Origin: Chloroflexota bacterium
Lineage (GTDB): Bacteria; Chloroflexota; Anaerolineae; Anaerolineales; UBA4823
NCBI GenBank assembly: GCA_012516075.1
Contig: JAAYXE010000075.1
Coordinates: 1,860-65,859 of the forward strand
Length of the DNA: 64,000 nt
Direction of reading: 5' to 3'
Below are positions 24,743-47,314 of this stretch, in pieces. A program made the translations under genes and the position numbers. The number at the start of each line of letters is the position of its first letter. The first letter of the stretch is position 1. The notes under the pieces were generated by a model, which saw only the letters and a list, made by a program, of their open reading frames with translations, did no database searches and had not been told where the DNA came from.

Positions 24743-24948
24743 ATTAAAAAAACCGGTAAATTTCCTGGGATCAGCGGACTGCTGTTAGATCTGGTTCAAA
24801 AAGTAATAAGCAAACACCAGCAGCAGGCAGAGCAGCAGGAGGAGGAAGACTTTCCATTTCATCTGCATCCGCGGTTTAAAGAAGCCGGCACCAAAACTGA
24901 GAAAGAGGAACAGCACAAATAATTCCATTGATATGATCCCCGGCGCGC

Positions 24949-25662: not shown

Positions 25663-25664
25663 AC

Positions 25665-29654: not shown

Positions 29655-30860
29655 TTAGTGGCTGTTTACTGCCATAACCTCCGGATACAGGCCCATCTGC
29701 TGCAGCGCCTGCCGGACCTCGGTACAGTAGACCGGGTTCATGACAATGACCACATCCGGCCGGTATGCCAGTAAAAACTGCGGAGACTGAATTTCCTGGC
29801 CGGTTCCGGCAATGAAGGAACCGGTTTTATGTGGATTAATGTCAATGGCGTATGCGATTTCACCGGTGGTGATCCCCAGGGTTGTCAGGAAAGCGACGGC
29901 TTTGGACCCTCCACCCCACAGGACAACCTTTTTCCCCGCCCCTGTAAACCCGGCGATTTTCTGGCGCCAGGCTGCCAGCCGGTGGGGATATTGAGCGGAG
30001 AAATGATCGATTTCCTGCGCCAGCTCACTCATATCGTCCGGGAGTGCGAACAGGTTTTGAGGGCGCTCTGAAACCGGACGGGCGGCGATCATCAGATACT
30101 GGTCATCGTAATCTTTCCACAGGTCGATGACCTCGAAACCCGAGCGGGCGAATAAACGCGCCAGAGAGCCCAGGCTGAAGTAAGAGCAGTGCTCGTAGTA
30201 GATGTCCCAGAAAGCAATTTCCCCAAAAACGTAGCGGGCATTCGGGACCTGAAAGAAGATCGTCGCCTGCAGATTCTGTTCAACAGACCTGCGCACCATG
30301 CCGACAAAATCAGCAACCTGGGGAATGTGCTCCAGAGTCATTTTGCAGCACACGAAATCCCCGCCGGTAGAAACGTATTTCTCGGAATAGAAATCCTGGA
30401 TAAAGGAAACGCGTTCGTTCTGACCGACAGGGCTGCGTTCGGGCACATAAGCCGGGTCAAATCCAATGCCGGTATTTCCCCCCAGCTCGCACAGCAAAGA
30501 AAGGAACTCACCCTGACCACACCCGATCTCAATAATCCGCTTTCCATGCAGATCGAAGCGGTCGATCAATGTTTGAGCCAGGTTTTTATGGAAAGCGTTG
30601 AAGGTGGGCGAGTATCCCTGCGTGGCCTCGTAGCGGGATGAGTACTCGTGCACACCCGGGTCGAAGGCTGTATTGAAAATGAAACCGCAGCCCTGACAGA
30701 ATCCCAGGCGGATATCTCCCCGCGGATAGTTTTCCGCCTCTGAGCGGCTGTTGAGAAGCAGCACACTGTGCACGGGAACCTGCCGGATTTCATAAAAGAT
30801 TTTGATATCTATTGAGCCGCAGCCCGGACATGAGATTTTTGAAGTGTGCGAGTGAAGCAT
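29655..30860 (-). CDS. class I SAM-dependent methyltransferase with N-terminal Zn-ribbon and C-methyltransferase-type C-terminal domain (TylCIII-like architecture)
   Basis: 401 aa. CPGCGS...CQGCGF Zn-ribbon. SAM motif IIEIGCGQGEFL. Rossmann-like C-terminal VVLWGGGSKAV. Paralogous architecture to 34630..35862. Confidence 0.65.
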   Translation of the reverse strand: MLHSHTSKISCPGCGSIDIKIFYEIRQVPVHSVLLLNSRSEAENYPRGDIRLGFCQGCGFIFNTAFDPGVHEYSSRYEATQGYSPTFNAFHKNLAQTLIDRFDLHGKRIIEIGCGQGEFLSLLCELGGNTGIGFDPAYVPERSPVGQNERVSFIQDFYSEKYVSTGGDFVCCKMTLEHIPQVADFVGMVRRSVEQNLQATIFFQVPNARYVFGEIAFWDIYYEHCSYFSLGSLARLFARSGFEVIDLWKDYDDQYLMIAARPVSERPQNLFALPDDMSELAQEIDHFSAQYPHRLAAWRQKIAGFTGAGKKVVLWGGGSKAVAFLTTLGITTGEIAYAIDINPHKTGSFIAGTGQEIQSPQFLLAYRPDVVIVMNPVYCTEVRQALQQMGLYPEVMAVNSH

Positions 30861-30925
30861 ATTTTTATCCAGTGAGTAACTAATCGATCCGGCCAGTACG
30901 GTGAGCGCTGGCGATCATGCAAGCG

Positions 30926-32521
30926 TCAGACAGCGGACCTGCCCACTGTGTTCTGAAGGACGATATCGTGCCCAGATTTTGGGGCAAACCATGCTGCGAT
31001 CCGCAGAAACAACAGACTGAAGATGATGTCGAGAAGCACCCTGCCAGGTTCCTGGCCGCCGAACAGCAGAGCCGCTCCGTACAGGAGTGTTGAAATCAGG
31101 GCACAGGTCGCAGTCCAGTTCACCTTCACCCCGCTCAAGATCGCCCGTCTGCGCGCTGCAGTGGATATAAAACCGGCGGGTAAGAACAGGAGCCCGGCGT
31201 AGAGCAGCCGGTAGATGTAAACTGCCTGCGAGTTCAGACGCACACGAGTGACACCGGCCGGGGGGAAAATCCAGAAAAAGTTCACCTGGGGGATGGATGC
31301 GAAAGCATATGCGTTGTGCGGGCCATCCAGGTAAACGCGCAGGTCATTTCCATTGAAGGCGATCAGGATCCGGCGCGGGGTCGAGCTGGAGAACACCCCG
31401 GGGACGATATACTCCGGTCTACTTCCGTTTTCCCCGCTGAGGCCGTTTCGCAGGCGGATCACCAGATCTGCCCCTTCCTGACCTGCGGTGAAATTGCGCT
31501 GGTAAGGGCTGGCCGACAGGGACAGGATGCGCGCCGGTCCCCATTGCTCCGCAGCAGCAGATGTCAGGGTGATACCGATCGTAAAAGCTGAGGTCTCGAT
31601 GATACGGGATGAGGCCGGCAGCGCGGCCGGATCGATCTCCAGCCAGGCGTCACCCGCAGTATGGAGTCCGTATTCGCCAAGCTGCGGGCTTCCGTGCAGG
31701 ATCCAGCCTCCCTGTGCTGTACCGTCAGTAAATGTGGTGAAAGCAAGATTGGCAATCAGAGAGGAGCCGGAAAACACATCCCGGTCCGGGTCCGAAAAAT
31801 AAGCCTTAACCTCGCTTTCCTTCAGCGCCCGGGCAGCGATCCAGATTTCTGAAACAACCCCCTGCCAGGGCCTGTCCCCCGTTTGTTCATTGCCGACCAG
31901 CAGGGGATAAGCCGGATCCCACGATTTCAGGCTGGACCGGTCAGCCAGTGTAAGGGTAAGGATAGGGATGAACCCCGTCCACAAAACCAGGAGAGCCGCA
32001 AACCCTGCAGCAGGGATCTGCCGGAAAATTTTGCCGGTCCAATTGAAAGCCCATTCGAGCAGACGCTCCCCCAATAAACGATAGATCAATAACCCTGCGC
32101 CGGCCCCTGCAGCGTTGGCAGCCAGATCCATCCAGGCCGAGAAGCGCAGCAGATAAAACTGCAGCAGTTCAACCGAAAACGAAAGCAGAAAACCGGCAGC
32201 CAGCACGACACAGCTGGCCAGTCCGCGCCGGACAGTCAGGCGGTCCAGCAGCAGAGCACAGAAAAAACCAAAAGGTATGAATAAAAGGATATTCCCCGGT
32301 ATGTCCTGGATAACGTAAGGCGCTGTAATTTCGGAATTAAAATGCTGAACCGCCTCGACCGGATGGGGAGCATCCGCAAACACGAAATCGAACGGGAACA
32401 GTGTCAGGTAAAGGATCAGTGCAGCATTCGCCAGGAGGAAAAACCAGAAAATGCCGTGCTTAGCCCCTTCCTGCTCATATCCACTGCGAGGACGGGTTTG
32501 GAGCGGCCTTTCCACAATCAT
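30926..32521 (-). CDS. membrane protein: VanZ-like N-terminal domain + LamG/concanavalin-like domain + C-terminal TM segments
   Basis: 531 aa. VanZ-like TM bundle (..LTLFPFDF..). LamG_3-type motif GDRPWQGVVSEIWIAARALKESEVKAYF. More TM helices at the C-terminus. Confidence 0.5.
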   Translation of the reverse strand: MIVERPLQTRPRSGYEQEGAKHGIFWFFLLANAALILYLTLFPFDFVFADAPHPVEAVQHFNSEITAPYVIQDIPGNILLFIPFGFFCALLLDRLTVRRGLASCVVLAAGFLLSFSVELLQFYLLRFSAWMDLAANAAGAGAGLLIYRLLGERLLEWAFNWTGKIFRQIPAAGFAALLVLWTGFIPILTLTLADRSSLKSWDPAYPLLVGNEQTGDRPWQGVVSEIWIAARALKESEVKAYFSDPDRDVFSGSSLIANLAFTTFTDGTAQGGWILHGSPQLGEYGLHTAGDAWLEIDPAALPASSRIIETSAFTIGITLTSAAAEQWGPARILSLSASPYQRNFTAGQEGADLVIRLRNGLSGENGSRPEYIVPGVFSSSTPRRILIAFNGNDLRVYLDGPHNAYAFASIPQVNFFWIFPPAGVTRVRLNSQAVYIYRLLYAGLLFLPAGFISTAARRRAILSGVKVNWTATCALISTLLYGAALLFGGQEPGRVLLDIIFSLLFLRIAAWFAPKSGHDIVLQNTVGRSAV

Positions 32522-32548
32522 GCCAGGAGCCCGGCTCTTTTCACAGCC

Positions 32549-33514
32549 TTAAACCTGACCTCTCTCGAACGGTTTTTCCGTGCTGGTCTGCAGCCCACCT
32601 CTCAACCGGTAGGACAGGTCTTTCGCGGCAACAATCAGATCACTGATCAGATGGCGCGCATTCTTTCTGATCCAGATCAACATATAGAAGTGCCCGAGTA
32701 AACGGGTTTTCAAATCCAGCGGGTACATCCACAGGCTGGTGAGGAACTCCTTGAACATTCGCCAGTACGGGAAGATGATTTTTCCGGCTTTCGTGGGGTC
32801 AAACCAGACGGTGTACAGATGATAGTTGTTGCCGCCGCTTTCGCTCAGTCCGAACATACGATTAGACTGCTTTGCATGCCTGCGGGAAAAGAAAAGGACT
32901 TCCGGAATTTCCTCAAATCGCCCCAGCAAACCCAGCCTGGCCAGGAGAACACCATCCGCATGACCATAATTCCCCATTACGGGCGTTTGCTTTAATGCGC
33001 TTGTGCGGATCAATCCAAAGATCTCAAAGCACATGCTCCAGTCCAGCAGCAGTGAGCGAAACCGGACGGCAGGTGAAGGCGAATCGGTGGGAAGTTTTAA
33101 CGTGTAATCAAGAATGTGGTTGCGTTTTTCATCCACGATCGTAACCCGTGGATAGCTCAGCACGACCGAAGGATCCTGATCCAGAACCTCTACGGCCCGG
33201 GCGAGGTATTCGGGGGCAATATAATCATCATGCGCTGCCCATTTAAAATATTCCCCCCTTGCGAGTTCAAAGACGCGGTTAAAGTTCCAGGCAGAGCCTT
33301 TATTTACCTCACTGCGGTAATAGCGAATGCGCCCGTCCTTCGCCGCGTATGCTTCACAAATCTCCTGCGTGCGGTCCGTTGAGGCATTATCCGAGATGAT
33401 CAGTTCAAAATCCTCGAAGGTCTGGACCAGAATTGAATCAATCGCCTCCGCAAGGTAGTTCTCCCCGTTGTACACAGGTAATCCGATACTTACTCTGGGA
33501 TTCTTTTCAGGCAT
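32549..33514 (-). CDS. glycosyltransferase family 2
   Basis: 321 aa. VSIGLPVYNGENYLAEAIDSILVQTFEDFELIISDNASTDRT, AAHDD. Confidence 0.85.
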   Translation of the reverse strand: MPEKNPRVSIGLPVYNGENYLAEAIDSILVQTFEDFELIISDNASTDRTQEICEAYAAKDGRIRYYRSEVNKGSAWNFNRVFELARGEYFKWAAHDDYIAPEYLARAVEVLDQDPSVVLSYPRVTIVDEKRNHILDYTLKLPTDSPSPAVRFRSLLLDWSMCFEIFGLIRTSALKQTPVMGNYGHADGVLLARLGLLGRFEEIPEVLFFSRRHAKQSNRMFGLSESGGNNYHLYTVWFDPTKAGKIIFPYWRMFKEFLTSLWMYPLDLKTRLLGHFYMLIWIRKNARHLISDLIVAAKDLSYRLRGGLQTSTEKPFERGQV

Positions 33515-33601
33515 TTAAGTCCTCCTATGAAAGATCGTTGTACTGCCTTTGGCTCCATATCTGACTTTAAGCAGATAGGGGTGGATGATTTGATGAAATG
33601 G

Positions 33602-34558
33602 TTACTGGCCGCTCACTGCTGAAGCGTTATCTCTATAAGTGATGGTCCTGCAGTCGAGCGGCATCCGCAGTCCCCGGAAAAATCCTTCCCAGAAGTAGAA
33701 GAATTTTTTCAATCCAGACGGGCGCTTAAATTGAAAGATGAGCGCCAGTGGTTGGAGTAATCCAACCCAGAAGGCTTCATATAACGCGACAACTGCGAAA
33801 TCAATGCGGCCGCAGCGCAGCGGCTTTACGTACGCAGCGCCAATTCCGAACCAGTTTCTTCGGGTTAATTCTTTACCTTCCTGCCAGGTCCGGAATCCAT
33901 CATGTACGATCGCTACGCGATTGGTCTCAAAGATCTGCCAGCCCTGCAGCAGTAATCGAACCGCGATATCCCCTTCTTCGCAGGCCTGAAAAATCGAACC
34001 CGGGCCCAGGCATACATCAAACCCCCCAATCTGCCTGGCAGCATTTTTCCTTAATGCCATACCAGCGCCGATGCCGCGCGCGGTGCATTTGTCGATTAGA
34101 TTTTTGACCAGCTTTTCATCCCTGCGGTCATATGTGGGTATGAAGCCCAGTTCAGAATCATGAGGTGCTGCTTTAACATTACAAAAAACAACTGCAACCC
34201 GTTCGTGCTGGAGAAACACAGTGCTGATGGTGCTGATCCAGTTTTCCGGCACGATGCAATCATCGTCGGTGTAGAGGACAAATTCTCCCTTCGCCGCGGC
34301 CAGGCCGATGTTCCTGGCATGGCCGGCGCCCTTCGTTGCAGTGTGCTTATACCGGAAGCGGGGATCCCGAAAAAATTTCGAGACCGCCGCTTCCGTATCG
34401 GGCTCGCTGCTCTGGTCTACCAGGATGACCTCGAAGCAGGGGTAGTCATTCGCCAGTATGGACTCCAGCGTCGCCACTACACGGTCGCCCCGGTTGCGGG
34501 TGCAAACAACAGCCGAGACTAAGGGTGGATCATTGCTGGGGCTGGGTAGTGGATCCAT
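33602..34558 (-). CDS. glycosyltransferase family 2
   Basis: 318 aa. VSAVVCTRNRGDRVVATLESILANDYPCFEVILVDQSS, YTDDDC. Confidence 0.8.
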   Translation of the reverse strand: MDPLPSPSNDPPLVSAVVCTRNRGDRVVATLESILANDYPCFEVILVDQSSEPDTEAAVSKFFRDPRFRYKHTATKGAGHARNIGLAAAKGEFVLYTDDDCIVPENWISTISTVFLQHERVAVVFCNVKAAPHDSELGFIPTYDRRDEKLVKNLIDKCTARGIGAGMALRKNAARQIGGFDVCLGPGSIFQACEEGDIAVRLLLQGWQIFETNRVAIVHDGFRTWQEGKELTRRNWFGIGAAYVKPLRCGRIDFAVVALYEAFWVGLLQPLALIFQFKRPSGLKKFFYFWEGFFRGLRMPLDCRTITYRDNASAVSGQ

Positions 34559-34629
34559 TAAGTGCAGCGCCTTTGCTTATCCAGAAATGCCTTTTCATAC
34601 CAACCGGGGCTGTGCTGGGTCTCAGCCTG

Positions 34630-35862
34630 TCAGATCACAGTCAATTCAGGGATGGGGACGATAAACCGGCCGCCCATCTGACGGTAATTCTCCTGCTGGC
34701 GTACAATCTCATCTTTGAAATTCCAGGCCAGCAGCAGAACAAAATCCGGACGGTCGGCGACCAGCTTTTCGACCGGATAAATCTTGAGGTGATTGCCACC
34801 CATATAACGCCCGTGCTTATAGGGGTTCAGATCGACCACATATTCAACCCATTCCTGTCCGATTCCGCAGTATGCCAGCAGTGTAGTGGCCTTGGCGGCT
34901 GCGCCGTAAGCCGCCGTCCGGCAGCCCTGGCGCTTCAGGTCAGCCAGAAAGGCGCGCAAATCGCGCCGGATCTTCTGCACCCGCTCTGCAAACCCCAGGT
35001 AAAAGTCGACACGGTCCACCTGCCGCTGCGCTTCCATCTGCAGCAGGTCCTTCACCCCGGGGCCGGGATTTTCAACCGGCTCGACGAACAGGCGCAACGA
35101 ACCGCCGTGGATTGCTACCCGCCGTACGTCATTGATGTACAGCCCGTGACGCCGGAATAGCCGGTCCAGCGCGGTCACCGAGAAATAGCACAGGTGCTGG
35201 TGGTAGATGGTGTCGAACTCCCCGTGATCCACTAAATCCACCACATACGGCGCTTCAATAACGGCGACACCGGTTTCCTTGAGGATTGTCTTGATCCCGG
35301 TGGCAAACCCGTTCAGGTCAGGCACGTGGGCCAGCACATTATTGGCCAGAAACACATCTGCCCGTTTGCCCTCCTGAACCAGTGCTTCGGCAAGCCCGGC
35401 ATTAAAGAAGGTGACCAGCGTAGGGATACCCGCACCCAGCGCAACCTGGGCAGGGGCCCTGGCCGGGTCAATGCCCAGAACCGGGATGCCGCGCTCGACG
35501 AAGTTCTTCAGCATGTAACCGTCATTGCTGGCAGCTTCAACGACCAGGCTGTTCTTATCCAGCTTCCTGCTGTTCATGATCTCCAGCGCACTGGTGCGGA
35601 AGTGGTGCAGCAGCGAGGGAGAAACCGAGGAGAAGTAAGGATACTCTGCGTAAAAAAGGATTTCCGGATCTACGGTTTCCCGGATTTGCACCAGTGCGCA
35701 GTCCTGGCAGAAAACCAGGGTCAGGGGCGCTTTGTATTCGGGCTGGTCGAGCTGTGCTTCGGTCAGCAGCCGGTCGGCCAGCGGGGTCTCACCGAACTCC
35801 AGGATGGTTTCCAGCCGGGTTGAGCCGCAGGAGCGGCAGCATTCTTCGTTGCGGTAAATCAT
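34630..35862 (-). CDS. NDP-hexose C-methyltransferase-like SAM methyltransferase (TylCIII-like)
   Basis: ORF 34630..35898. I prefer the ATG at 35862 (MIYRNEECCRSCGSTRLETILEFGETPLADRL...), preceded by aaaggtggg. Zn-ribbon CxxC...CxxC, class I MTase core and C-methyltransferase C-terminal domain. Confidence 0.7.
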   Translation of the reverse strand: MIYRNEECCRSCGSTRLETILEFGETPLADRLLTEAQLDQPEYKAPLTLVFCQDCALVQIRETVDPEILFYAEYPYFSSVSPSLLHHFRTSALEIMNSRKLDKNSLVVEAASNDGYMLKNFVERGIPVLGIDPARAPAQVALGAGIPTLVTFFNAGLAEALVQEGKRADVFLANNVLAHVPDLNGFATGIKTILKETGVAVIEAPYVVDLVDHGEFDTIYHQHLCYFSVTALDRLFRRHGLYINDVRRVAIHGGSLRLFVEPVENPGPGVKDLLQMEAQRQVDRVDFYLGFAERVQKIRRDLRAFLADLKRQGCRTAAYGAAAKATTLLAYCGIGQEWVEYVVDLNPYKHGRYMGGNHLKIYPVEKLVADRPDFVLLLAWNFKDEIVRQQENYRQMGGRFIVPIPELTVI

Positions 35863-35945
35863 TGTTCCCACCTTTATTCTGTCCTGCCAGGGCTGCATAC
35901 ACCTGTCGGTTGACAGCCCTGGACGGGACTGACCTAAATGCAGGT

Positions 35946-37804: not shown

Positions 37805-38224
37805 TCAGAGGTTTTCCACACAGGATCCGTTACGAGGTATATCCGAGCTGCTTTTTTCATCCTGATCCAGACAGCTCGAAACCAGCTTTTTCAACTCAGA
37901 TGAGCTGAACGGGTGCGTCAAAAAGCCGCAAGCCCCACGCATCTGGACTTCTCTGTGAATTCTTTCCTGGCCGCTGGCCGTGATCAAAATCACAGGGAGA
38001 TCTTTAAAGCGCTTATCAGCGCGCACTTTGTCCAGCAGGCCCAGGCCATCCAGATATGGCATGTTGATATCGCTGATCAACAGGTCAACCCTGTTTTTCT
38101 CGAGATAGGCAACTGCTTCGACCCCATTGCGTGCTGCGGCGATCACGTGGCGCTCGGACCGCAAAATCAGTTCAATCAACCGGTGCGTCAGGTAGGAATC
38201 GTCTACTACAAGAATGTTTGCCAT
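37805..38224 (-). CDS. stand-alone CheY-like receiver (REC) protein
   Basis: 139 aa. ILVVDDS...DLLISDINMPYLDG...ILITA...HPF. Confidence 0.85.
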   Translation of the reverse strand: MANILVVDDSYLTHRLIELILRSERHVIAAARNGVEAVAYLEKNRVDLLISDINMPYLDGLGLLDKVRADKRFKDLPVILITASGQERIHREVQMRGACGFLTHPFSSSELKKLVSSCLDQDEKSSSDIPRNGSCVENL

Positions 38225-38233
38225 GCAGAGCCC

Positions 38234-38683
38234 TTATAAATACTTCACCAACCGCCAGTGGTTGTCGCCCGGCGATGGGTGATAGCTGACATGATCCATC
38301 AACTGGTGAATGAGAGCCAGCCCGTATCCCCTGACCTGCAAATTGCTGGGGTCAGGAAAGGCGGCATCGGGCAGCACAAACGAACGACCTGAATCGCGCA
38401 GATCGACAGTGAAAGAACCGGGGTTCTCTGTGATTGTGAAAACAGCCCGAATCCGGCCGTCCTGCTCACCATAGGCATGCTCGAGAATATTGATGCACAG
38501 TTCATGAACGGCCAGGTGAACACGATAAGCAGCATCCTGGGCGGCTGTTAAACTCTCCTGCTGGAACAGTGCAGAGACACAGGCGCCCAGCACTTTGAGA
38601 AATGGCTGTTGGGCGGGGATATCAAGCTGAAGGCGGCAAAGGCGCCCTGTGGCCGGTGCTGTGGTATCTTTCATGCTCATCAC
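38234..38683 (-). CDS. RsbW/SpoIIAB-like serine protein kinase (GHKL, HATPase_c_2)
   Basis: 149 aa. N-box HELCINILEHAY. G1-like LRDSGRSF. G2-like RGYGLALI. 4-nt overlap with the upstream phosphatase gene. Confidence 0.75.
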   Translation of the reverse strand: MMSMKDTTAPATGRLCRLQLDIPAQQPFLKVLGACVSALFQQESLTAAQDAAYRVHLAVHELCINILEHAYGEQDGRIRAVFTITENPGSFTVDLRDSGRSFVLPDAAFPDPSNLQVRGYGLALIHQLMDHVSYHPSPGDNHWRLVKYL

Positions 38684-40200
38684 ACGCCCGTGCGTTTCAG
38701 CACAACGAGAGTCTGGTCATCGTCCGGAAGCGCACCGGCGCCGAAATCTCTGACCGCCGTATACAGGTTTTCAGCAATCTCTCTGGCCGGCAGATGCGCA
38801 AGCGATTCCAGCAGGGCCATGAGGCGCTCGTGTCCAAGCATTTCTCCGCTGGTGCTGCGCATCTCGTTGAGACCATCCGTTCCCACCACCAGCACATCTC
38901 CGATATCGAAAGGCAGAACCTGGTCACGTGTGTACGTGTCACGGAGAATTCCAACCGGTAACCCATCAGCCTGCAGCAGGCGGGCCCGGCCACTGTGGGG
39001 CAGGAAAATGACAGGAGAATGACCGGCGTTGGCATATACCAGTTCCCCACTGCCAGGCAGGATCTGGCCGACGAACAGGGTGGCAAACCTGCCCAGAGAA
39101 GAGAGATCGTCGTACAGGGCTTCATTAGCGTGGCAGATCACCCCGGCCGGGGTGGCGCTGTCCTGGTGGTTCAAATCGGTGCGAATGACACTGCGCGCCA
39201 TCGCCATCAGCAGGGCAGCCGGGACACCTTTTCCCGAAACATCACATACCACGAAGGTAAACACCCCGTTCTGTGCTGCGATAAAGTCGTAGAAATCCCC
39301 ACCCACCTGAGAGGCCGGCTGGGAAGCTGCCCACAGATCAAAGCCCGGCGCTGCCTGTACCATCTCTGGCAGCAGGCTTACCTGCACCTGGTGAGCCAGA
39401 TCCATCTCGGTGCGCAGCCGCACCAGTTCTACGTTGGCTGCCACCATGCGCACGTTTTCCACACTTGCGCCGGCAAAGCGAGCTACCGTCTGCAGCATTT
39501 TGATATCCGACGACATGAACTCACCGCCCGGACGATCTGCGGCCCCTATGGCGGCAAACGGCACCCCGGCGACCTGCACCGGCACGATCAGCAGGTTATT
39601 CAACCCAATCGTATTGCGCGGGTCATTTCTATGAATGGAGACAAACGGGCTGCTCCCCTGTTCCAACTCGGCCAGCACATGCTGCAGGCCGGCAGGGCCA
39701 TCCCAACCCTCCGGACTGCAGGCCGTATGCACGTTTCCATTTGGAAGGCGCAGGAAAAAGAAAGCTTTTTCCGCATTCACCAGAGCGGCGGCCTGCGAGG
39801 TCAGCAGGTCCATCGTCTGCTCAAGGGTGATACTGCTGCGCAGCACCTGGGTCAGTTCGTACAACGCGACCAGTTGGTCGCGGGCTTCAACCAGTTCCTC
39901 GGTGAGGCTGTTCAGATCCCGGTTCAGCGGGATTAACGCTGAAATCAAGCCGGCATCGGCGGCCAGGCGCTCCCGGGTCCCTGGCGTGTCGATCCCGACC
40001 ACGCGCAGTTCACCGACCACCTGGTGGTCTACGATAAGCGGGGCAGCAACCACCTTTCCCGGGGGAGTGTTCTCCTGAGGCCAGGCAGCCTGAAGCCGGC
40101 GCCCCTCCCACAAAGAGACCTGCGCAGCGCCTCGAGCCAGCCACGACTGCGCCAGGGCATTGATCTGGGGGCGATATGATTCCAGAACGGAAGCCAGCAT
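38680..40200 (-). CDS. GAF-domain PP2C (SpoIIE/RsbU-type) serine phosphatase
   Basis: ORF 38680..40311. The ATG at 40200 (MLASVLE..) lies 2 nt past the STAS gene stop. Central GAF-like region. C-terminal PPM motifs GGDFYDF, VCDVSGKGVPAAL, NAGHSP, GTDGL, DDQTLVVLKR. Confidence 0.8.
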   Translation of the reverse strand: MLASVLESYRPQINALAQSWLARGAAQVSLWEGRRLQAAWPQENTPPGKVVAAPLIVDHQVVGELRVVGIDTPGTRERLAADAGLISALIPLNRDLNSLTEELVEARDQLVALYELTQVLRSSITLEQTMDLLTSQAAALVNAEKAFFFLRLPNGNVHTACSPEGWDGPAGLQHVLAELEQGSSPFVSIHRNDPRNTIGLNNLLIVPVQVAGVPFAAIGAADRPGGEFMSSDIKMLQTVARFAGASVENVRMVAANVELVRLRTEMDLAHQVQVSLLPEMVQAAPGFDLWAASQPASQVGGDFYDFIAAQNGVFTFVVCDVSGKGVPAALLMAMARSVIRTDLNHQDSATPAGVICHANEALYDDLSSLGRFATLFVGQILPGSGELVYANAGHSPVIFLPHSGRARLLQADGLPVGILRDTYTRDQVLPFDIGDVLVVGTDGLNEMRSTSGEMLGHERLMALLESLAHLPAREIAENLYTAVRDFGAGALPDDDQTLVVLKRTGV

Positions 40201-40202
40201 CT

Positions 40203-40592
40203 TCAACTCCGGAAGGAACGGATGGCTTCTTCCTCTGAGAGGAAGATCTCGAATACACTGTCCAGGCGGGTCAGTTCGAAAATAATCCTGACCTGCTGCT
40301 GGATTTCGCATAAACGCACATCGCCGTTCAGCGCCTGTGCCCGCTTCTTCCCCAGCACGAGGGTAGACAGTGCCGTTGAATCGAGAAAGGTTACGCCGCT
40401 TAAATTCACCACCACAAAGGCCGGCGGCTTGCTGGCCGCAGTTTCAAGCCATTCGCGCGCCGGCATGTGACTGGTAACATCAAAATTGCCGGCGAGCCGC
40501 AGAATCTGTATTTGACCAACGGTGGAGGTGCTGTCAATCAGTCCACCATCCATTACCGGTCTGGTTTCAGGGGAATAAGGATTTAATGCCAT
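40203..40592 (-). CDS. STAS-domain protein (anti-sigma-factor antagonist family, RsbV/SpoIIAA/SypA-like)
   Basis: 129 aa. ..FVVVNLSGVTFLDSTALSTLVLG.. keeps the phosphorylatable Ser of the DS[ST]G-type motif. Confidence 0.8.
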   Translation of the reverse strand: MALNPYSPETRPVMDGGLIDSTSTVGQIQILRLAGNFDVTSHMPAREWLETAASKPPAFVVVNLSGVTFLDSTALSTLVLGKKRAQALNGDVRLCEIQQQVRIIFELTRLDSVFEIFLSEEEAIRSFRS

Positions 40593-42211
40593 ACTCTACG
40601 CCACCATACCTGAGGAGTCTGTGAAAGGATTTTCAAGTCTTCCTGCCAGGAGCGCATTACAACGTAATACACATCTGCGATGAGGATCTCCTCCAGCTCG
40701 CTTTTACCCGCTGCCTGGGTGTACCACAGCCCGGTGATGCCCGGGCGGCAGTCATTGCGCTTTTCCTGCCAGGCTTCGACAATTTTTTCCGCTTCGGTCG
40801 GCGACAGGGGTTTTACGCCCACCAGGTTGAGATCGCCGCGCAGCACGTTGATCAGTTCCGGCAGCCGGTGCCATTCGAGTTTCTCCAGGAGCCTGCCCAT
40901 TTTTGTCAGGCAGCCGTGGTCATCTCGAGTGGCAAACTGGTAAAGATTGAAAGCAGTCTGCTCCGCGTTATGTCCCCATACAACCGGGACGCCGTAAAAA
41001 ACCCGTCCGCTGGTTAACCACAGCAGCAGAGCGAGGGGGAGGGTCAGGGGCAGCGTGACCAGCAGTAAGAGCAGCGCCAGGCCGGCGTCGAAAATTCGCT
41101 TCAGCCCCCTCTCTGTAAAGGCTGCCGGCACCCGGCTCAACAGAAAGTCATCCGCTATTTGAATGCTGCTGGATGTACGGACGTCGATTACCTGATTCTG
41201 CTGCACCACACGATCCTGAAGGCGCACATACTGTCCAACATAGGTATGGTCCAGAATAGTGCTGCAGCGTACGGTCGCCCCCTGATCGATGACCACATTG
41301 GAACCGACCACAGTATACGGCCCTAATTCAACGCCTTTTCCAATACGGGAATTCTGCCCGATATAAACGGGAGGGATGATCTGCGCCTCGGGATGGATGG
41401 AGGAGCCGTTTCCAATCCACACCCCTTTCATCGCCTGACGCGCTTTATACAGCGCATAACGAGGCAGCGCTGAATTGTCCCGGCCTCTACCCGACTGGTA
41501 AAAATGCGCCAGGAAGGCCTCCTGTGCCTGCTGGTACTCTTTCAACGTCCCAAGCAAATTGCAGTAGCCTTCTTCGAAGTGCGCTCTGACTTTCCACCCG
41601 TTCTGAACCAGTGCCGTCAGCAGATCCTGGTGAATATCAAACTTCGTCCGCGCCGGGATGAAATCCAGGACCTGCGGATCCAGCAGGTAGACACCGGTAT
41701 CAACCCATCCCGCCGGGCCGGATAGCAGTTCCAGGCCAGTGACAAAGCCCTGATCATCCACTGCCAGGCGATTGCCATCGTCCCCGTTCACCCTGCTCAC
41801 GACAACCGTCGCACAGGCCCCACTGCTGATGTGTTCATCCAGCAGCTTCTCGAGATCAAAGTCAATGATCGCATCCGCTGGGACAACCAGGAACGGACTG
41901 CGCAGCCGCGAGGCAGCCAGCTTCAACACCCCGGCGGATCCCCACGGCTCGCGTTGAAGGACATATTCCAGCTCCACCCCCCAGCGGCGCCCCGAACCAA
42001 AATACGCCTCAATAGAGCCGCCGAAGGCATACAAACCGACCAGATACTTCTTTATCCCCTGCCGGGCGAGCAGTTCCAGTGGATAGGTCATTACCGGCTG
42101 GTTCAACACTGGAACCATCGCCGAAGGGAGGTTTTCCGTCAGCGGATACAGCTTCCGGGATTCTCCGGAAGCCTGCAGAAAAACCGGCAGTTCCCCTACG
42201 GATGGCATCAT
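40583..42211 (-). CDS. fusion protein: NTP-transferase-like + LbH + TM + monotopic phosphoglycosyl-transferase-like domain (catalytic motifs degenerate)
   Basis: 542 aa. The N-terminal nucleotidyltransferase fold has ASGESRKLYPLT in place of GGxGTRLxPLT. LbH repeats (IGQNSRIGKGVELGPYTVVGSNVVIDQGATV). TM helix. Bac_transf-like C-terminus has WHRLPELINVLRGDLNLVGVKP instead of [21 protein letters not shown], and PGITGLW. Confidence 0.65.
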   Translation of the reverse strand: MMPSVGELPVFLQASGESRKLYPLTENLPSAMVPVLNQPVMTYPLELLARQGIKKYLVGLYAFGGSIEAYFGSGRRWGVELEYVLQREPWGSAGVLKLAASRLRSPFLVVPADAIIDFDLEKLLDEHISSGACATVVVSRVNGDDGNRLAVDDQGFVTGLELLSGPAGWVDTGVYLLDPQVLDFIPARTKFDIHQDLLTALVQNGWKVRAHFEEGYCNLLGTLKEYQQAQEAFLAHFYQSGRGRDNSALPRYALYKARQAMKGVWIGNGSSIHPEAQIIPPVYIGQNSRIGKGVELGPYTVVGSNVVIDQGATVRCSTILDHTYVGQYVRLQDRVVQQNQVIDVRTSSSIQIADDFLLSRVPAAFTERGLKRIFDAGLALLLLLVTLPLTLPLALLLWLTSGRVFYGVPVVWGHNAEQTAFNLYQFATRDDHGCLTKMGRLLEKLEWHRLPELINVLRGDLNLVGVKPLSPTEAEKIVEAWQEKRNDCRPGITGLWYTQAAGKSELEEILIADVYYVVMRSWQEDLKILSQTPQVWWRRVWH

Positions 42212-42215: not shown

Positions 42216-43661
42216 TCACCCCTGAGCGGCAGCCGAGGTCAGGTTATCGTACAGGGCCAGCAGGCGGTGAAAATTCGCCATGGTGATCACCTGCATGACG
42301 TCTTTCGAACAGCCGCTCACGCGCAGCTCGCCGCCCGCTTCACGCGCCAGCCGGGTCATCGTAGCCAGGGCCGCCAGACCTGCGCTGGTAATGAAATCCG
42401 TTGTCGACAGATCCAGGATCACAAACGGTGATCGCTGTAGAGCCTGCTGGCAGTCTGCAATGACCTGGGACGCCGTGCCGGCGTCGAAAAAGCGCGGTCC
42501 GGTGAGCAGCACCCAGCGCCCGTGATCTCGCACGGTGCTGGTCGTGTCCGATTTGGTCTGTACCTCACCTGCGCAGCTCGTCTCTGTCCGCAGCAGGGTA
42601 TCCAGCTTAAGAAAAGCGAGCGACTTTTGAATTCGGGCCGGTACTGCCCGCAGGGCCAGGGATCCGTCCCGCTGGCGGATGATCCTGGCGAGTTCCACCA
42701 GCGTACCCAGGGCAGAGCTGTCCAGATGCTGCGCGGCGTTAAGATCGATCACCAGGTGAACAGTACGGTCGAGAGCCTGCTCTGCCAGTTCCCAGAAGCG
42801 CTGGCAGTGTTCGGCCGCCATGCTTCCCCCGATCGACAGGACGGCTGTGTCCCCTTCCATCTTTAGGTCAAGCGAGAAAGGTTGGCCCGAGTCGGAAGCT
42901 CCCCGGCGCATCTGCAGCCACTGACAGGCGAACAGAAAAGTGAATGCACCCAGATCAACCGCATAGCGGCGCCACAGGCGGCCGGGTTCCTGTATCAACC
43001 GGTACAGCCACTCCAGACCGTTCTTCTGCATCCACAGCGGGGCGCGCCTGGTGGTGCCGGTGATGAAGTCCAGGGTTCCGCCAACTCCCATCATCAGCGG
43101 AACGCCCAGCTGGTGAGCATACATACCCATCCACTTTTCCTGCTTGGGGTTGCCGAACGCGATGAGCAGAACGTCCGGCCGGGCGGCACGGATCTTCTCC
43201 GGAATAGACTCATCCATCTCCAGCACGGGTCTGTAAGGCGGGGAGTAGAAGCCGGCAATGCGCAGGGTCGGGTGACGTTCCTGAAGGATATGCGCCGCAC
43301 GCGCGGCCACCCCGGGCGCTGCTCCCAGCAAATAAATGGAATAACCCTTTTGCGCCGCCCGGGCAGCAAACCTGGGTACCAGATCAGCCCCTGCCACACG
43401 CTCTTCGATGTGCCCTCCCAGCAAACGCGCTCCCCAGACCACAGGCATTCCGTCCGCAGTTGCCAGATCGGCGTTCTGGAGCAGGTAGCGCAGCTCCGGG
43501 TCCTGACGGGCCTTAACGACAAAATCGGCATTAACGGTCACCACCTGAAACGTTCTACCGGTCGCACGGCCCTGCTGGACAAACGCTTCCATGCGCTTCA
43601 GGGTCGCTTCCATATTCAGATTGTCAACAGGCGTACCGAGAATGACGATCAGGTTTCGCAC
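42216..43661 (-). CDS. WecG/TagA/CpsF-family (GT26) glycosyltransferase fused to two C-terminal STAS domains
   Basis: 481 aa. GT26 part: ILGTPVDNLNMEATL...VVTVNADFVVKARQDPELRYLLQNADLATADGMPVVWGARLLG...FGNPKQEKW. STAS-1: ..LVIDLNAAQHLDSSALGTLVELARI.. STAS-2: ..FVILDLSTTDFITSAGLAALATMTRL.. Confidence 0.75.
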   Translation of the reverse strand: MRNLIVILGTPVDNLNMEATLKRMEAFVQQGRATGRTFQVVTVNADFVVKARQDPELRYLLQNADLATADGMPVVWGARLLGGHIEERVAGADLVPRFAARAAQKGYSIYLLGAAPGVAARAAHILQERHPTLRIAGFYSPPYRPVLEMDESIPEKIRAARPDVLLIAFGNPKQEKWMGMYAHQLGVPLMMGVGGTLDFITGTTRRAPLWMQKNGLEWLYRLIQEPGRLWRRYAVDLGAFTFLFACQWLQMRRGASDSGQPFSLDLKMEGDTAVLSIGGSMAAEHCQRFWELAEQALDRTVHLVIDLNAAQHLDSSALGTLVELARIIRQRDGSLALRAVPARIQKSLAFLKLDTLLRTETSCAGEVQTKSDTTSTVRDHGRWVLLTGPRFFDAGTASQVIADCQQALQRSPFVILDLSTTDFITSAGLAALATMTRLAREAGGELRVSGCSKDVMQVITMANFHRLLALYDNLTSAAAQG

Positions 43662-43753: not shown

Positions 43754-44605
43754 TTAATATGCTCCCTTGCCAGTGATCACGGCGGGGATGGTCTTGATGA
43801 GGATCTCAATGTCTTTGAGCAGGCTTTGCTCCTGAATGTACTGCAGATCCAGTTCAACCCAGCGCTGGAAGGAAAGGTCGCTGCGGCCGGAAACCTGCTG
43901 CAGCCCGGTGATTCCGGGTACGGCATCCAGGCGAGCAAAGGTATCGAAATCGTACTGACTCACCTCAGCGGGAACCGGCGGCCGCGGTCCCACCAGGCTC
44001 ATGTTGCCCTCGATCACATTGAAAAGCTGCGGCAGCTCATCGATGCTCAGCTTACGGATCAGCCGCCCTACACGGGTCACGCGTGGATCTTGACGGATCT
44101 TGAACACCACCTTATCGGCCTCATTCATGTCCATCAACTCTTGTTTGCGCGCCTCGGCATCCACATCCATGGAACGAAACTTATAGCAGTCGAACTCCTT
44201 TCCCCACTTCCCCACGCGCTTCTGGCGAAAAATCACAGGCCCAGGGGAATCGAGCTTGATGGCGAGCGCAGTGATCGCCATCACCGGCAGGGCAAAGGGA
44301 AGAAGTCCCAGCGCCAGGATCAGGTCCAGACATCGCTTGAGATTATTTTTGATTTTGATGCGGATGACCCAGGTCAGGAGCAGCAGACGGATGCGCTGCC
44401 GGGAAAGGCCTTTATTAAACGCCTGTTGGGCATGGATTTCGACCATTCGAGCTGTTTTTTCAGCCTCGGTCAGCACCACCCTCGGGGCGTACACATCCGT
44501 ATTGTTACCTGCTTTTAGCTGATCAACCCCGCTAAAACGGTAACTACCGGTATATGGACGGAACTTATTTCCGTCGGGCAGTGGTTTTGAACGAAGCACT
44601 TGCAT
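43754..44605 (-). CDS. canonical monotopic phosphoglycosyl transferase (undecaprenyl-phosphate sugar-phosphate transferase, EpsL/PglC/WbaP-C type)
   Basis: 283 aa. ..[30 protein letters not shown]...[38 protein letters not shown]...[12 protein letters not shown]. Confidence 0.85.
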
Positions 44606-44608: not shown

Positions 44609-45877
44609 TTACCCCTCATTTCTCGTCGTTCGAACCCATTCTTGCTGGCTGTGACCAAGATACACTCCCAGCACCTGTTTAACTTTCCACAGTACGAATA
44701 GCGGTACAAAGATGAAGGCCCGGTAGATTTCTCTGGGCGCCTTCACCATCTGCAATCCCGAGAAAACATAGAATGCCATCCCACCGGCCACACCCGCGCT
44801 CAGAATCAGATTGGTGCGCCCCAGCCAGAGCAGAAGCGGACTGCCGCCGGGCAGGAACCCGAGAGCGCTGCCAGCAAACAGGAGAACCGCAGCCAGCAGA
44901 TCCAGCCCGGCGAACAATGCCAGGATGGAAAATGGTGGGATGACATGTTCCACCAGTGCATCCAGATAAAGGACAGACCCGCGCAGGTCCCTTTTCAGCA
45001 GTGAAAGCCAGAATTTGCGCGCCAGATGGGGAACATAACGGCGGGCCATCTCCACCCGCCCGCTCTCCCAGCGATCATGCTGCGACTTCGACCGGCTCAG
45101 GTTGTCCGGCATCTGACCCTGCACGACTGCATCTGGGACGAAGATCACCCTTTCGCCAGCCAGCAGCAGCTTCATATGCTGTTCGATATCCTCTGTGACG
45201 GATGCAGACCAGGGGAAGCGGCGCAGCAGATCTGTGGCAAAGATCATGCCGTTGCCCTTTAACCCGGCCGATCCTCCCAGCACCATCCTCCCCAGCGGGC
45301 GCAGGTAATGCAGCCCAGCGAGAGCGATGTAGCGAATGCTCTCCGGCCCTGAACCCAGCGGACTGCGCACAGTGTAGTAAGCCTGCAGCACACGACTTCC
45401 CTGAGTTAGATAAAAATCTGCAGCAGCCAGGAAGTTCGTGGAAACTACCGAATCGGCGTCCAGGATCACCACCGCATCATCGTTGGACGTCTTCAAAAGT
45501 TTGTCGAGCGCCCACTGCAGAGCATATCCCTTGCCCCGCTTTTCGAGGTCCGTCCGCTGGTGGACGACTGCGCCCATCTGCTGTGCAACCAGCGCCGTCT
45601 GGTCCGTACAGTTATCCGCGATCACATGTACAGAGAAATGGTCGGCCGGATAATCGAGATCCGCCAGGTTTCTCAGCAAAACAGGCAGCAGTTTTTCCTC
45701 ATTGTGGGCGGGAATGAGGATGAGGAACTTGCTGCGCGACTTGCCCTGCTCTACCCGGCGCTTCCTCCCTGCCGCTTTCCAGGCTGCAAACGTCAGCAGA
45801 ACCAGATACCCAACCGGCAGGAGCAAGCCGGTTTGGAACAGGAGCAGTAAGCCTTGCAGCCAGGTAAAAAACACCAT
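44609..45877 (-). CDS. membrane-embedded GT2 with processive-synthase-type motifs (D, DxD, TED, QxxRW)
   Basis: 422 aa. N- and C-terminal TM segments. ILIPAHNEE, VVILDADS, SVTEDIE, QHDRWESG. First gene of the operon. Confidence 0.75.
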   Translation of the reverse strand: MVFFTWLQGLLLLFQTGLLLPVGYLVLLTFAAWKAAGRKRRVEQGKSRSKFLILIPAHNEEKLLPVLLRNLADLDYPADHFSVHVIADNCTDQTALVAQQMGAVVHQRTDLEKRGKGYALQWALDKLLKTSNDDAVVILDADSVVSTNFLAAADFYLTQGSRVLQAYYTVRSPLGSGPESIRYIALAGLHYLRPLGRMVLGGSAGLKGNGMIFATDLLRRFPWSASVTEDIEQHMKLLLAGERVIFVPDAVVQGQMPDNLSRSKSQHDRWESGRVEMARRYVPHLARKFWLSLLKRDLRGSVLYLDALVEHVIPPFSILALFAGLDLLAAVLLFAGSALGFLPGGSPLLLWLGRTNLILSAGVAGGMAFYVFSGLQMVKAPREIYRAFIFVPLFVLWKVKQVLGVYLGHSQQEWVRTTRNEG

Positions 45878-46028: not shown

Positions 46029-46388
46029 TTACGAATCCGCCGGATCGTGTGGCTGCTCCTGTAGTATGGCAGCGATCAGATCGGCCTTACAGGAAACCGT
46101 GATCTCTGACTTTTGATAGATATGCAGCACATTCCTGTGCATATCCAGGGTCATGATCGGGAGATCAGGGTGTTCTTCGATCAGGTCGAGTACAAAGGGA
46201 CGATCGGCCAGCAGCAAACTTTGATCCACGATGAGCATATCAGGACGGAACCGGTTCAGCTCACTGGCCAGCCTGTTACTGGCCGCATAAGCGATTCCCT
46301 TGACGACAAGCCCCTGCACCTCGGCCAGCAGGCTTTCTACGCCTAAAGAGAGCAATCGATTCCCGTGAATGATTAGAATCCGTTTCAC
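46029..46388 (-). CDS. receiver-like (pseudo-receiver?) single-domain protein
   Basis: ORF 46029..46481. A GTG at 46388 (VKRILIIHGN...) gives a 119 aa REC-like fold. The acidic pair is replaced by HGN. A candidate acceptor Asp is retained in DMLIVDQS. The start is uncertain. Confidence 0.45.
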   Translation of the reverse strand: MKRILIIHGNRLLSLGVESLLAEVQGLVVKGIAYAASNRLASELNRFRPDMLIVDQSLLLADRPFVLDLIEEHPDLPIMTLDMHRNVLHIYQKSEITVSCKADLIAAILQEQPHDPADS

Positions 46389-46518
46389 GCCTGATCCCCA
46401 ATCCCCCGGTTTGAAGATTAAGAAAGCAAACTGTAGCAATATTACGCCAGGTGAGCCTGCACTGCTATCGCCCGGTATCACCCTGCCCGGGTTAAAAAAA
46501 GGACGATCTTATCCTATC

Positions 46519-46624: not shown

Positions 46625-47314
46625 CTACGCTTGACTACCGGGCTCATTAGCGGAACTGGAAGTGCTCAACGGAGCAGCGAGGTGATATTTGCGCGCCAGT
46701 TGAGCAGCTTCGCGCCGGTTTTTTACGTGCAGCTTATCGAGGATATTGTGGATGTGAACTTTGACCGTGTTCTCAGTAATAAATAGTTGTTCTGCGATCA
46801 TCCGGTTGGTCGCCCCGCTGGCCAGAAGCCTGAGCACATCCATTTCTCTACTGGTCAGCGTGGCAAGTTCAGGCAAAGACTTTTCATTACTACCCAGCAG
46901 ACGAACGAATCGATCCAGAACACGCCCGGTCATAGCGCGTGTGAGCGCAATCTCGCCGCGCTGTAGAGCATGAATGGATGCCATCAGGTGGGAAAGGGAA
47001 GTATTTTTTAGAATATACCCCTTTGCTCCACAGCGCATTGAGCTGACAACCTGATCATCAGTCTCATTGATCCCCAGGATGACAACCTTGGCATCTGCAT
47101 GGATTTGCAGAATTGAGTGCACAATTTCAAAACCATCGATATCAGGGAGCTCTGCATCCAGCAGAATGATATCCGGGCGTAGTTGTTTTACTTTATCCAG
47201 GGTTTCACCGGCCGAACCCGCCACGCCAACGACCTCGATACCGGGCTGCTTTTTCAGCAAACTAACAAGGCCTTCTCGAAACAGTGCATGATGGTCAGTA
47301 ATGAATATTTTCAT
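46625..47314 (-). CDS. NarL/FixJ-family response regulator (REC + LuxR HTH)
   Basis: 229 aa. IFITDHH...DIILLDAELPDIDG. C-terminal LTSREMDVLRLLASGATNRMIAEQLFITENTVKVHIHNILDKL. Confidence 0.9.
   Translation of the reverse strand: MKIFITDHHALFREGLVSLLKKQPGIEVVGVAGSAGETLDKVKQLRPDIILLDAELPDIDGFEIVHSILQIHADAKVVILGINETDDQVVSSMRCGAKGYILKNTSLSHLMASIHALQRGEIALTRAMTGRVLDRFVRLLGSNEKSLPELATLTSREMDVLRLLASGATNRMIAEQLFITENTVKVHIHNILDKLHVKNRREAAQLARKYHLAAPLSTSSSANEPGSQA

Follow-up and report, generated by a model that had tools for sequence, protein, structure and literature searches.

Within a 64,000-nucleotide stretch of DNA from a Chloroflexota bacterium (contig JAAYXE010000075.1, positions 1,860 to 65,859; hereafter the window), a gene of a polysaccharide cluster codes for a glycosyltransferase of family GT26 that is fused to two C-terminal STAS domains. 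The protein is termed GT26-STAS2 below. Its architecture, its fold, the intact catalytic and phospho-acceptor residues and the synteny with a Ser kinase gene across phyla were directly established. On balance, we consider it somewhat probable that the enzyme-borne STAS domains receive the signal of a partner-switching module encoded in the same operon and that the phosphorylation state of their Ser residues controls the GT26 step.

Architecture of GT26-STAS2

The gene runs from position 43661 to 42216 of the window on the minus strand; an earlier reading of this DNA, made from the letters without database searches (the sequence-only reading), had given no strand. It is a single unbroken open reading frame (ORF) of 481 codons with a GTG start behind a purine-rich stretch. 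The N-terminus of the 481-amino-acid (aa) product (MR..L) coincides with that of 120 homologues, the consensus of which is MRK... Pfam placed Glyco_tran_WecG (PF03808) on residues 64-233 with an E-value of 3.6e-65 and 219 bits against a cutoff of 27. Two STAS stretches followed in the tail, namely STAS_2 (PF13466) on residues 275-354 with 63 bits (cutoff 29) and STAS (PF01740) on residues 392-477. PF01740 reached 87.5 bits in two stretches (cutoff 22.6), and both Pfam STAS families exceeded the gathering score. NCBIfam concurred with 160 bits for wecG_tagA_cpsF (TIGR00696, cutoff 69) and, on the tail, 82 bits for ant_ant_sig (TIGR00377, cutoff 53). The gene and its parts are the following:

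42216..43661, minus strand: whole gene, GT26 (WecG/TagA/CpsF) with two C-terminal STAS domains (ORF, Pfam, homologues)
42906..43661, minus strand: GT26 catalytic domain (aa 1-252) including the C-terminal appendage, its last part being a long, conserved hydrophobic/basic helix (226-252; TagA match, Foldseek)
42582..42875, minus strand: STAS domain 1 (STAS1), aa 263-360 (AlphaFold2 secondary structure, Pfam STAS_2)
42717..42719, minus strand: codon of Ser315, predicted STAS1 phospho-acceptor, motif L-D-S-S-A-L-G (in register with SpoIIAA D57-S58)
42534..42581, minus strand: inter-STAS linker, aa 361-376, of varying length (confidence score pLDDT 54-65, poorly conserved columns)
42228..42533, minus strand: STAS domain 2 (STAS2), aa 377-478 (Pfam STAS 392-477, AlphaFold2)
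42384..42386, minus strand: codon of Ser426, predicted STAS2 phospho-acceptor, motif F-I-T-S-A-G-L (homologue alignment, hhalign)

An AlphaFold2 model built from 120 homologues (pLDDT 92.8, pTM 0.91) consists of a GT26 body, a long helix (226-252), STAS1 (263-360), a linker (361-376) and STAS2 (377-478), and both STAS regions adopt beta/alpha STAS folds. In Foldseek comparisons with the PDB, for which template modelling (TM) values were normalised to the target, the GT26 part matched the TagA/TarA structures 5wb4, 5wfg and 7mpk with E-values of about 1e-15, TM values of 0.91-0.94 and root-mean-square deviations of 1.4-2.0. The STAS parts matched 1th8_B (SpoIIAA bound to SpoIIAB, E 2.4e-7), 6m36 (RsbV with RsbW), 1vc1 and 4hyl with TM values of 0.75-0.89. 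STAS domains of SLC26 transporters and MlaB were also among the matches, and the closest ones in sequence and fold were the phosphorylatable anti-sigma antagonists SpoIIAA, RsbV and TM1442. The fusion of GT26 to tandem STAS domains, as proposed in the sequence-only reading, was confirmed by Pfam, NCBIfam, AlphaFold2 and Foldseek. Every peptide quoted there was found in the 481-aa translation, and the C-terminal region, for which a non-STAS fold had been named as the possible objection, was modelled and matched as STAS by AlphaFold2 and Foldseek.

A false fusion through a frameshift or mis-assembly near 42930-42960, of which the same reading had warned, has a negligible probability. The identical ORF and protein are found on 12 contigs or more, which stem from several independent samples, and the best 120 homologues (48-56% identity) are all full-length (480-535 aa) and share the three Pfam families of the window protein. 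In Chloroflexota, Desulfovibrionales and Verrucomicrobiota together, this architecture was found in more than 240 full-length homologues, including RefSeq proteins of the cultured Desulfovibrio inopinatus (WP_051261366.1) and Desulfobaculum bizertense (WP_159445994.1). The junction itself is a continuous conserved helix and linker and is confidently modelled. Nothing in favour of an artefact was found and it was excluded; GT26-STAS2 is confirmed as a genuine, widely conserved bacterial protein.

The enzyme half aligned with TagA of T. italicus (PDB 7mpk) over residues 6-238 with an E-value of 4e-39 and approx. 36% identity. In TagA, roles have been assigned to the catalytic Thr37 and Asp65 as well as to Arg221 of the C-terminal appendage, whose folding onto the active site and docking to the membrane are required (Kattke et al. 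2019, PMC6493773). The corresponding T42, D70 and R228 were present in 120/120 homologues, the invariant residues of this set being T42, N44, D70, Q174, R221 and R228. The appendage (203-252) is conserved in the GT26-STAS2 family and the STAS tail starts directly after the appendage-equivalent helix. The canonical GT26 enzymes TagA/TarA and WecG (GT-E fold) share the fold (TM 0.93), the equivalents of T37, D65 and R221 and the appendage, but they stop at the appendage with ~240-250 aa, whereas the GT26-STAS2 family runs on into one or two STAS domains. With its catalytic residues and appendage intact, the GT26 half is predicted to be catalytically competent. Concerning the substrate, all NCBIfam equivalog scores were below their cutoffs with 132 against 350 bits for TarA, 123 against 323 for WecG and 178 against 500 for EpsA of Myxococcus xanthus, the top match. 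An assignment as TarA or WecG (ManNAc and ManNAcA transferases, respectively) or as EpsA was dropped due to these scores, and judging by them the specificity of these enzymes should not be carried over.

Each STAS repeat retains a predicted phospho-acceptor at the SpoIIAA/RsbV phospho-position, as had been claimed for a Ser or Thr: S315 (HLDSSAL) and S426 (FITSAGL). The phospho-acceptor motif is D-S-x-x-x-G, and both residues occupy the conserved Ser position at the start of helix 2, equivalent to S58 of SpoIIAA, a numbering that we take from our own reading of the SpoIIAA sequence. Among 120 Chloroflexota-type homologues, D314 (120/120), S315 (118/120) and G319 (120/120) are conserved in STAS1 and D417 (120/120), S426 (120/120), A427 (117/120) and G428 (120/120) in STAS2. 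A second, more distant clade seeded with the Desulfobaculum protein kept the Ser of STAS1 in 117/120 and that of STAS2 in 118/120 sequences. In hhalign comparisons with the free STAS protein encoded nearby, STAS1 (E 1e-24) proved closer than STAS2 (E 8e-19) by sequence, and both Ser residues stood in register with the D-S of the free STAS.

Two STAS domains were present in 70 loci and one in 13 (Caldilineaceae, Kouleothrix and others), the single one always being of the STAS1 type. The linker between GT26 and STAS1 is highly variable. STAS1 starts late in the 631-aa relative P0133 and in the Chloroflexia loci (L028-L056), in the latter up to ~50 residues later than in the window protein, and the 606-aa relative P0123 contains an Ala/Pro/Gly-rich segment of ~125 aa that is probably disordered. 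The added length of the 606- and 631-aa relatives is low-complexity Ala/Pro-rich linker, and the presence of a third STAS domain there was ruled out.

The partner-switching cassette and its conservation

On the minus strand of the window, the gene lies in the order GT2, small phosphoglycosyltransferase (PGT), GT26-STAS2, NTP/LbH/pseudo-PGT, free STAS, GAF-PP2C, kinase and receiver (REC), and genes for nucleotide-sugar enzymes come after REC. Its neighbours are:

44609..45877, minus strand: membrane GT2 glycosyltransferase (EpsU-like), first gene of the cassette (Pfam; NCBIfam EpsU 244 bits, below the equivalog cutoff)
43754..44605, minus strand: small monotopic PGT (Bac_transf) with intact Asp-Glu dyad IDELPQL (Pfam, E 8e-65)
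40583..42211, minus strand: fusion of NTP_transferase, LbH and a Bac_transf-like part, 542 aa, starting 4 nucleotides past the GT26 stop (Pfam)
40203..40592, minus strand: free single-domain STAS of the anti-sigma-antagonist type, motif F-L-D-S-T (Pfam)
38680..40200, minus strand: GAF + PP2C (SpoIIE-type) Ser phosphatase (Pfam)
38234..38683, minus strand: RsbW/SpoIIAB-type Ser kinase (HATPase_c_2), 149 aa (Pfam)
37805..38224, minus strand: single-domain receiver (REC), last gene of the regulatory block (Pfam)

The PP2C probably starts at the ATG at 40200, right behind the STAS stop. The sequence-only reading had put a kinase/phosphatase pair at a distance of 1.6 kb. In the direction of transcription, this value holds for the start of the free STAS gene past the GT26 stop, while the PP2C and kinase genes follow at 2.0 and 3.5 kb, respectively. 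No STAS, kinase or PP2C genes beyond the cassette were found in the 64-kb window, and a sigma-70 family gene was found neither in the cassette of the window nor in that of three distant homologous loci from long contigs (L001-L003), which have the same gene order. The partner-switching module is a sigma-less, non-canonical one.

The conservation of the cassette was studied with one genome per GTDB species and the full-length alignment as query. This resulted in 80 loci, every one from Chloroflexota, with carriers in Anaerolineales, Ardenticatenaceae, Promineifilaceae, Caldilineaceae and Thermoflexales as well as in Chloroflexus, Chloroploca, Oscillochloris, Roseiflexaceae and Kouleothrix. Downstream genes were counted in the 66 distinct species loci whose downstream sequence extends over at least 6.8 kb, and exceptions were re-checked by profile searches. 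The counts were:

Downstream, NTP/pseudo-PGT: 62/66 loci
Downstream, free STAS: 58/66 loci
Downstream, PP2C: 57/66 loci
Downstream, kinase: 58/66 loci
Downstream, REC: 42/66 loci
Downstream, free STAS, PP2C and kinase together and colinear: 55/66 loci
Upstream, small PGT: 65/70 loci
Upstream, GT2: 47/70 loci

The kinase N-box HExxxNIxxHAY with its G1 (DxGxxF) and G2 (GYGL) motifs, the catalytic metal-site motifs of the PP2C and the D-S motif of the free STAS are conserved in at least 90%. With the trio colinear in 55 of the 66 loci and a kinase gene beside the enzyme gene in another phylum, the module can be called cognate in the sense of conserved synteny, as the sequence-only reading had suggested. 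In one Ardenticatenaceae locus (L044), an ORF of ~380 aa matching the free-STAS profile (13476-14618) was observed at the PP2C position, with the free STAS and kinase genes retained.

To look beyond Chloroflexota, the tail by itself was compared with 1.84 billion representative proteins, which gave 60 clusters at E <= 1e-10. Of 20 clusters checked, 16 contained an N-terminal GT26, either intact or cut by a contig end. The other four were P0121, P0124, the kinase-STAS fusion P0195 and P0210, for which Pfam listed STAS domains only. P0121 and P0124 had been considered as stand-alone tandem-STAS proteins (~240-260 aa) and were rejected as they look like truncated gene calls; P0124 starts within the C-terminal helix of GT26. 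The metagenomic P0195 / P0275 (370 aa) combine an RsbW-type HATPase_c_2 kinase and two STAS domains in one polypeptide. For the relative P0387 (797 aa), precomputed Pfam annotation lists several S-adenosylmethionine methyltransferase families, Glyco_tran_WecG and STAS. Two of the proteins recovered with the tail are the D. inopinatus and D. bizertense RefSeq entries named above. The relatives of these Desulfovibrionales proteins include proteins from Verrucomicrobiota metagenome-assembled genomes, one of which had been named ‘Anti-sigma-factor antagonist and glycosyl transferase’ by its depositor.

The genes of D. bizertense are arranged as GT2, GT26-STAS2, PGT, HATPase_c_2 kinase and LbH/pseudo-PGT, and a PAS-SpoIIE phosphatase gene adjoins the cluster on the opposite strand. 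A related 4.3-Mb contig (L093) showed this arrangement including the kinase, with no PP2C gene within 10 kb. No free STAS gene was found within 10 kb of either locus. As kinase and PP2C genes flank the enzyme gene in Desulfobaculum with no free STAS gene, this arrangement points to the fused STAS domains as the substrate. The pseudo-PGT gene belongs to the same cluster in 3/3 Desulfovibrionales-type loci. These three loci also contain, at the downstream end of the cluster and on the opposite strand, a gene for a phosphoesterase of the Metallophos family (PF00149; L090 16427-17398, L091 13672-14628 and L093 14068-15018), which stands directly behind the pseudo-PGT gene in L091 and L093 and could code for an alternative phosphatase.

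Returning to the neighbours in the window, the small PGT would be the maker of the lipid-linked primer, to which GT26 is predicted to add the second sugar; this role on a polyprenyl-diphosphate-linked primer is suggested by the adjacent intact PGT and by Wzx, Wzy and Wzz genes. The 542-aa neighbour has its PGT dyad replaced (HRLPEL instead of IDELPQL in the small PGT) and VGPRP changed to VGVKP. The dyad replacement is conserved as [H/D/N/Y/Q]-R in ~75 Chloroflexota loci and as R-E in Desulfobaculum, and the protein is a probable pseudo-PGT membrane anchor. Both Bac_transf proteins of the cassette are without a STAS domain according to Pfam.

Further along the same strand, there are genes for Wzz, Wzx (Polysacc_synt), a BcsQ-like ATPase and Wzy_C, and the locus is therefore a large Wzx/Wzy-type polysaccharide cluster. 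These genes lie at 23198-28276 and 29655-35898 (both minus strand), together with two C-methyltransferase-type proteins, two ORFs judged GT2-like by eye and a membrane protein with VanZ and LamG; the regions are partly common to L003. Upstream of the GT2 gene, a 150-aa ORF without Pfam match (46029-46481, minus strand) and an ORF whose translation resembles by eye a LuxR/NarL-type response regulator (46625-47314, minus strand) may be transcriptional regulators of the cluster. The closest NCBIfam matches of the GT2, PGT and GT26 proteins are EpsU, an EpsZ-type model and EpsA of the M. xanthus exopolysaccharide (EPS) system, all below the equivalog cutoff, which hints at an evolutionary relation to this Wzx/Wzy EPS pathway. 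Consensus scans for promoters and terminators between 35.5 and 47.5 kb gave counts at or below the shuffled expectation, and operon boundaries could not be called.

The fused STAS domains as proposed switch receivers and alternative roles

The control of a STAS-fused transferase by phosphorylation has a precedent in All4160 of Anabaena sp. PCC 7120, a fusion of STAS and PGT. Alr3423, an RsbW-like kinase, phosphorylates Ser74 of its STAS domain in vitro, and HenR, a SpoIIE-like phosphatase, is bypassed by an S74A exchange (Harada, Matsuoka & Ehira, Mol Microbiol 2026, PMC13555669).

For GT26-STAS2, the fused STAS domains are likely substrates and partners of the kinase and PP2C because their motifs are intact, the genes are linked in two phyla and, in one phylum, they are the sole STAS near the kinase. 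In the mechanism that we favour, GT26 would extend the undecaprenyl-diphosphate-sugar primer of the adjacent small PGT in a Wzx/Wzy-dependent pathway, and its STAS domains would be the receivers of the module of RsbW-like kinase, GAF-PP2C, free STAS and REC. The kinase would bind and phosphorylate Ser315 and/or Ser426, the PP2C would take the phosphate off, and unphosphorylated free STAS would compete for the kinase, which would turn the system into a true partner switch. GT26 activity would then depend on whether the tail is phosphorylated or occupied, and an early committed step of polysaccharide synthesis would be gated by reversible Ser phosphorylation. By analogy with All4160 and with SypA of Vibrio fischeri, the unphosphorylated form would be the active one. 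Since the STAS tail is attached to the appendage on which docking and catalysis depend in TagA, phosphorylation or kinase binding may control the membrane docking of the appendage or the monomer/dimer state. We infer from the features described above that the fused STAS domains are phosphorylated, and likewise the sign of this control and its appendage-based mechanism.

A more specific version is conceivable, if doubtful: in a three-partner switch with the enzyme substituting for the sigma factor, the kinase dimer would grip the two STAS domains and keep the appendage off the membrane and the enzyme inactive, until dephosphorylated free STAS takes the kinase and frees the enzyme.

The variation among the loci adds to the evidence in favour of phosphorylation. 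The Ser of STAS1 is replaced in two loci only, namely L081 (S to G), in which free STAS and PP2C are present in the cassette and the kinase gene is missing, and L083 (S to C), in which the cassette is interrupted by a transposase. The loss occurred in 0/58 loci with the kinase gene against 2/8 without it (hand-computed Fisher p ~0.013, uncorrected for phylogeny).

Several observations weigh against the favoured mechanism. Partner-switching genes were missing within 10 kb in 8/66 Chloroflexota loci (in L081 the kinase alone), six of which retain both Ser residues, and none were found within 10 kb in D. inopinatus, which also retains both, or in one Verrucomicrobiota locus. In such loci, the module may lie elsewhere in the genome or the Ser may be retained for structural reasons, e.g. 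helix capping. The Ser of STAS2 is lost or shifted in three loci that bear the module (L046, L055 and L059), for which reason STAS1 looks like the core regulatory domain. The variable linker between GT26 and STAS1 with up to ~125 disordered residues argues against a rigid allosteric coupling. In a mirror-tree analysis, which is a crude method, all components were positively correlated; the kinase co-varied with the PP2C (r 0.80) and the free STAS (0.62) more strongly than with the fused STAS2 (0.54) and STAS1 (0.49), and therefore the free STAS may be the main partner of the kinase in Chloroflexota. This result is compatible with a free STAS that competes for the kinase, without proving it.

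The same values would also suit a docking or scaffold role, in which unphosphorylated fused STAS domains assemble an initiation complex of GT26, small PGT, NTP-transferase/pseudo-PGT, perhaps with the kinase bound in stoichiometric amounts, while kinase and phosphatase act on the free STAS only. The distances of STAS1 tracked those of the NTP/LbH/pseudo-PGT protein best (r 0.75; partial 0.51), the gene of which adjoins that of GT26-STAS2 in 62 of the 66 Chloroflexota loci and shares its cluster in all three Desulfovibrionales-type loci. Moreover, MlaB and SLC26 STAS domains, which are non-phosphorylated interaction modules, are also among the fold matches. We nevertheless regard this role as rather unlikely, as the exact phospho-acceptor Ser is near-invariant in both domains across ~240 sequences and its loss from STAS1 is confined to loci missing the kinase gene. 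Some loci have the kinase and no free STAS gene, and All4160 provides a precedent for phosphorylation.

The sequence-only reading had proposed the enzyme as the output of the switch or as a decoy or competitor of the free STAS, and the output role is the more probable one. As a decoy or buffer, the enzyme-borne STAS domains would titrate kinase and phosphatase or report enzyme abundance, while the free STAS would be the true output and act on another target. The canonical trio of kinase, phosphatase and free STAS is complete and co-evolving, there are known cases of free STAS proteins whose output is not a sigma factor, and the target of SypA is still given as unknown in reviews. A pure decoy role is made less likely, however, by the Desulfobaculum-type loci, where a kinase gene, accompanied or not by a PP2C gene, occurs without a free STAS gene. 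Nor would a decoy have to be tied to the same enzyme in three phyla or more, and single- and double-STAS forms alike keep the linkage to the enzyme; we consider this role improbable.

Least probable among the functional alternatives is a ligand sensor, i.e. STAS domains with a small-molecule ligand (nucleotide, anion, lipid or sugar-nucleotide) that regulate GT26 without involvement of kinase and phosphatase. The loci without partner-switching genes within 10 kb and the SLC26 and MlaB fold matches would fit such a sensor, but the closest matches are the phosphorylatable antagonists SpoIIAA, RsbV and TM1442, the D-S motif is conserved and the kinase synteny is strong.

Relation to known systems and meaning of the fusion

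The closest known systems are that of All4160 and those of All2285 and Synechocystis XssP. All4160 resembles GT26-STAS2 as a polysaccharide transferase acting on a lipid carrier with a fused SpoIIAA-type STAS domain and a conserved Ser. Post-translational control at the entry to the pathway, which is predicted for GT26-STAS2, is a further common trait; the systems also have in common an RsbW-like kinase, a PP2C of the SpoIIE type and no involvement of a sigma factor. All4160 differs as it is the priming PGT (Bac_transf) with a single, N-terminal STAS domain and unlinked kinase and phosphatase genes. GT26-STAS2, in contrast, is the GT26 enzyme of the next step, its STAS domains are C-terminal and usually tandem, and the whole module including the free STAS is in the operon. 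The All4160-type fusion is defined by a single N-terminal STAS on Bac_transf and GT26-STAS2 has neither feature; it stands outside this family and, as the comparison suggests, probably works like All4160 all the same. The hosts differ as well. The STAS-PGT architecture was called essentially cyanobacterial and lineage-specific by the All4160 authors (PMC13555669), whereas GT26-STAS2 is found in Chloroflexota, Desulfovibrionales and Verrucomicrobiota. In three or more other phyla, the GT26-STAS2 family shows STAS joined independently to the enzyme that acts next in the pathway.

With the SpoIIAA-SpoIIAB-SpoIIE and RsbV-RsbW-RsbU modules, the cassette shares the same three protein families, the conserved catalytic and phospho-acceptor motifs and fold matches to their complexes. 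It differs in having no sigma factor, the place of which, or that of a second antagonist, is apparently taken by the enzyme-borne tandem STAS. SypA/SypE of the V. fischeri syp locus and HmpU/V/W of Nostoc are likewise STAS phospho-switches encoded in a polysaccharide locus; they act post-transcriptionally, and their STAS is active when unphosphorylated. Their STAS proteins, however, are free and their target is unknown, whereas here STAS is fused to a candidate target class. In M. xanthus, the phosphorylated receiver EpsW binds the PGT EpsZ for post-translational control (Schwabe et al., mBio 2025, PMC12802240). The circuits are alike in the control, predicted in our case, of the first lipid-linked steps of a Wzx/Wzy EPS pathway and in a single-domain receiver, and the GT26, GT2 and PGT proteins are nearest to EpsA-, EpsU- and EpsZ-type models; the M. 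xanthus circuit differs in having no STAS, kinase or PP2C module.

The literature search on the GT26+STAS architecture found no paper. The GT26 version of a STAS-fused transferase is thus absent from the searched literature, while the concept itself has its precedent in All4160. The Rosetta-stone proposal of the sequence-only reading, i.e. that the fusion links partner switching to a glycosyltransferase target, is sound, yet as a concept it is no longer new, since direct phospho-regulation of a STAS-fused transferase has been demonstrated for All4160 (PMC13555669).

GT26-STAS2 probably extends to a new enzyme and to new phyla a control principle whose sole experimental demonstration is that for the cyanobacterial All4160 in 2026. 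How the envelope polymers divide the scarce undecaprenyl phosphate and nucleotide sugars among themselves depends on post-translational control at the first lipid-linked steps. For TagA-like enzymes, the membrane-activated C-terminal appendage is suggested as a route of regulation. The kinase gene, usually with the PP2C gene, lies in the same cluster in two of the three carrier groups, and with ~8 genes the system is self-contained and testable, with Chloroflexus, Kouleothrix and Desulfobaculum as cultured carriers. The fusion strengthens the case that orphan STAS regulators of polysaccharide loci target the initiation enzymes themselves. If the three-partner switch were true, it would, together with the cyanobacterial STAS-PGT fusions, make the initiation complex of PGT, GT26 and pseudo-PGT a general target class of sigma-less STAS regulators, which would take in orphans such as SypA and HmpV and span at least four phyla.

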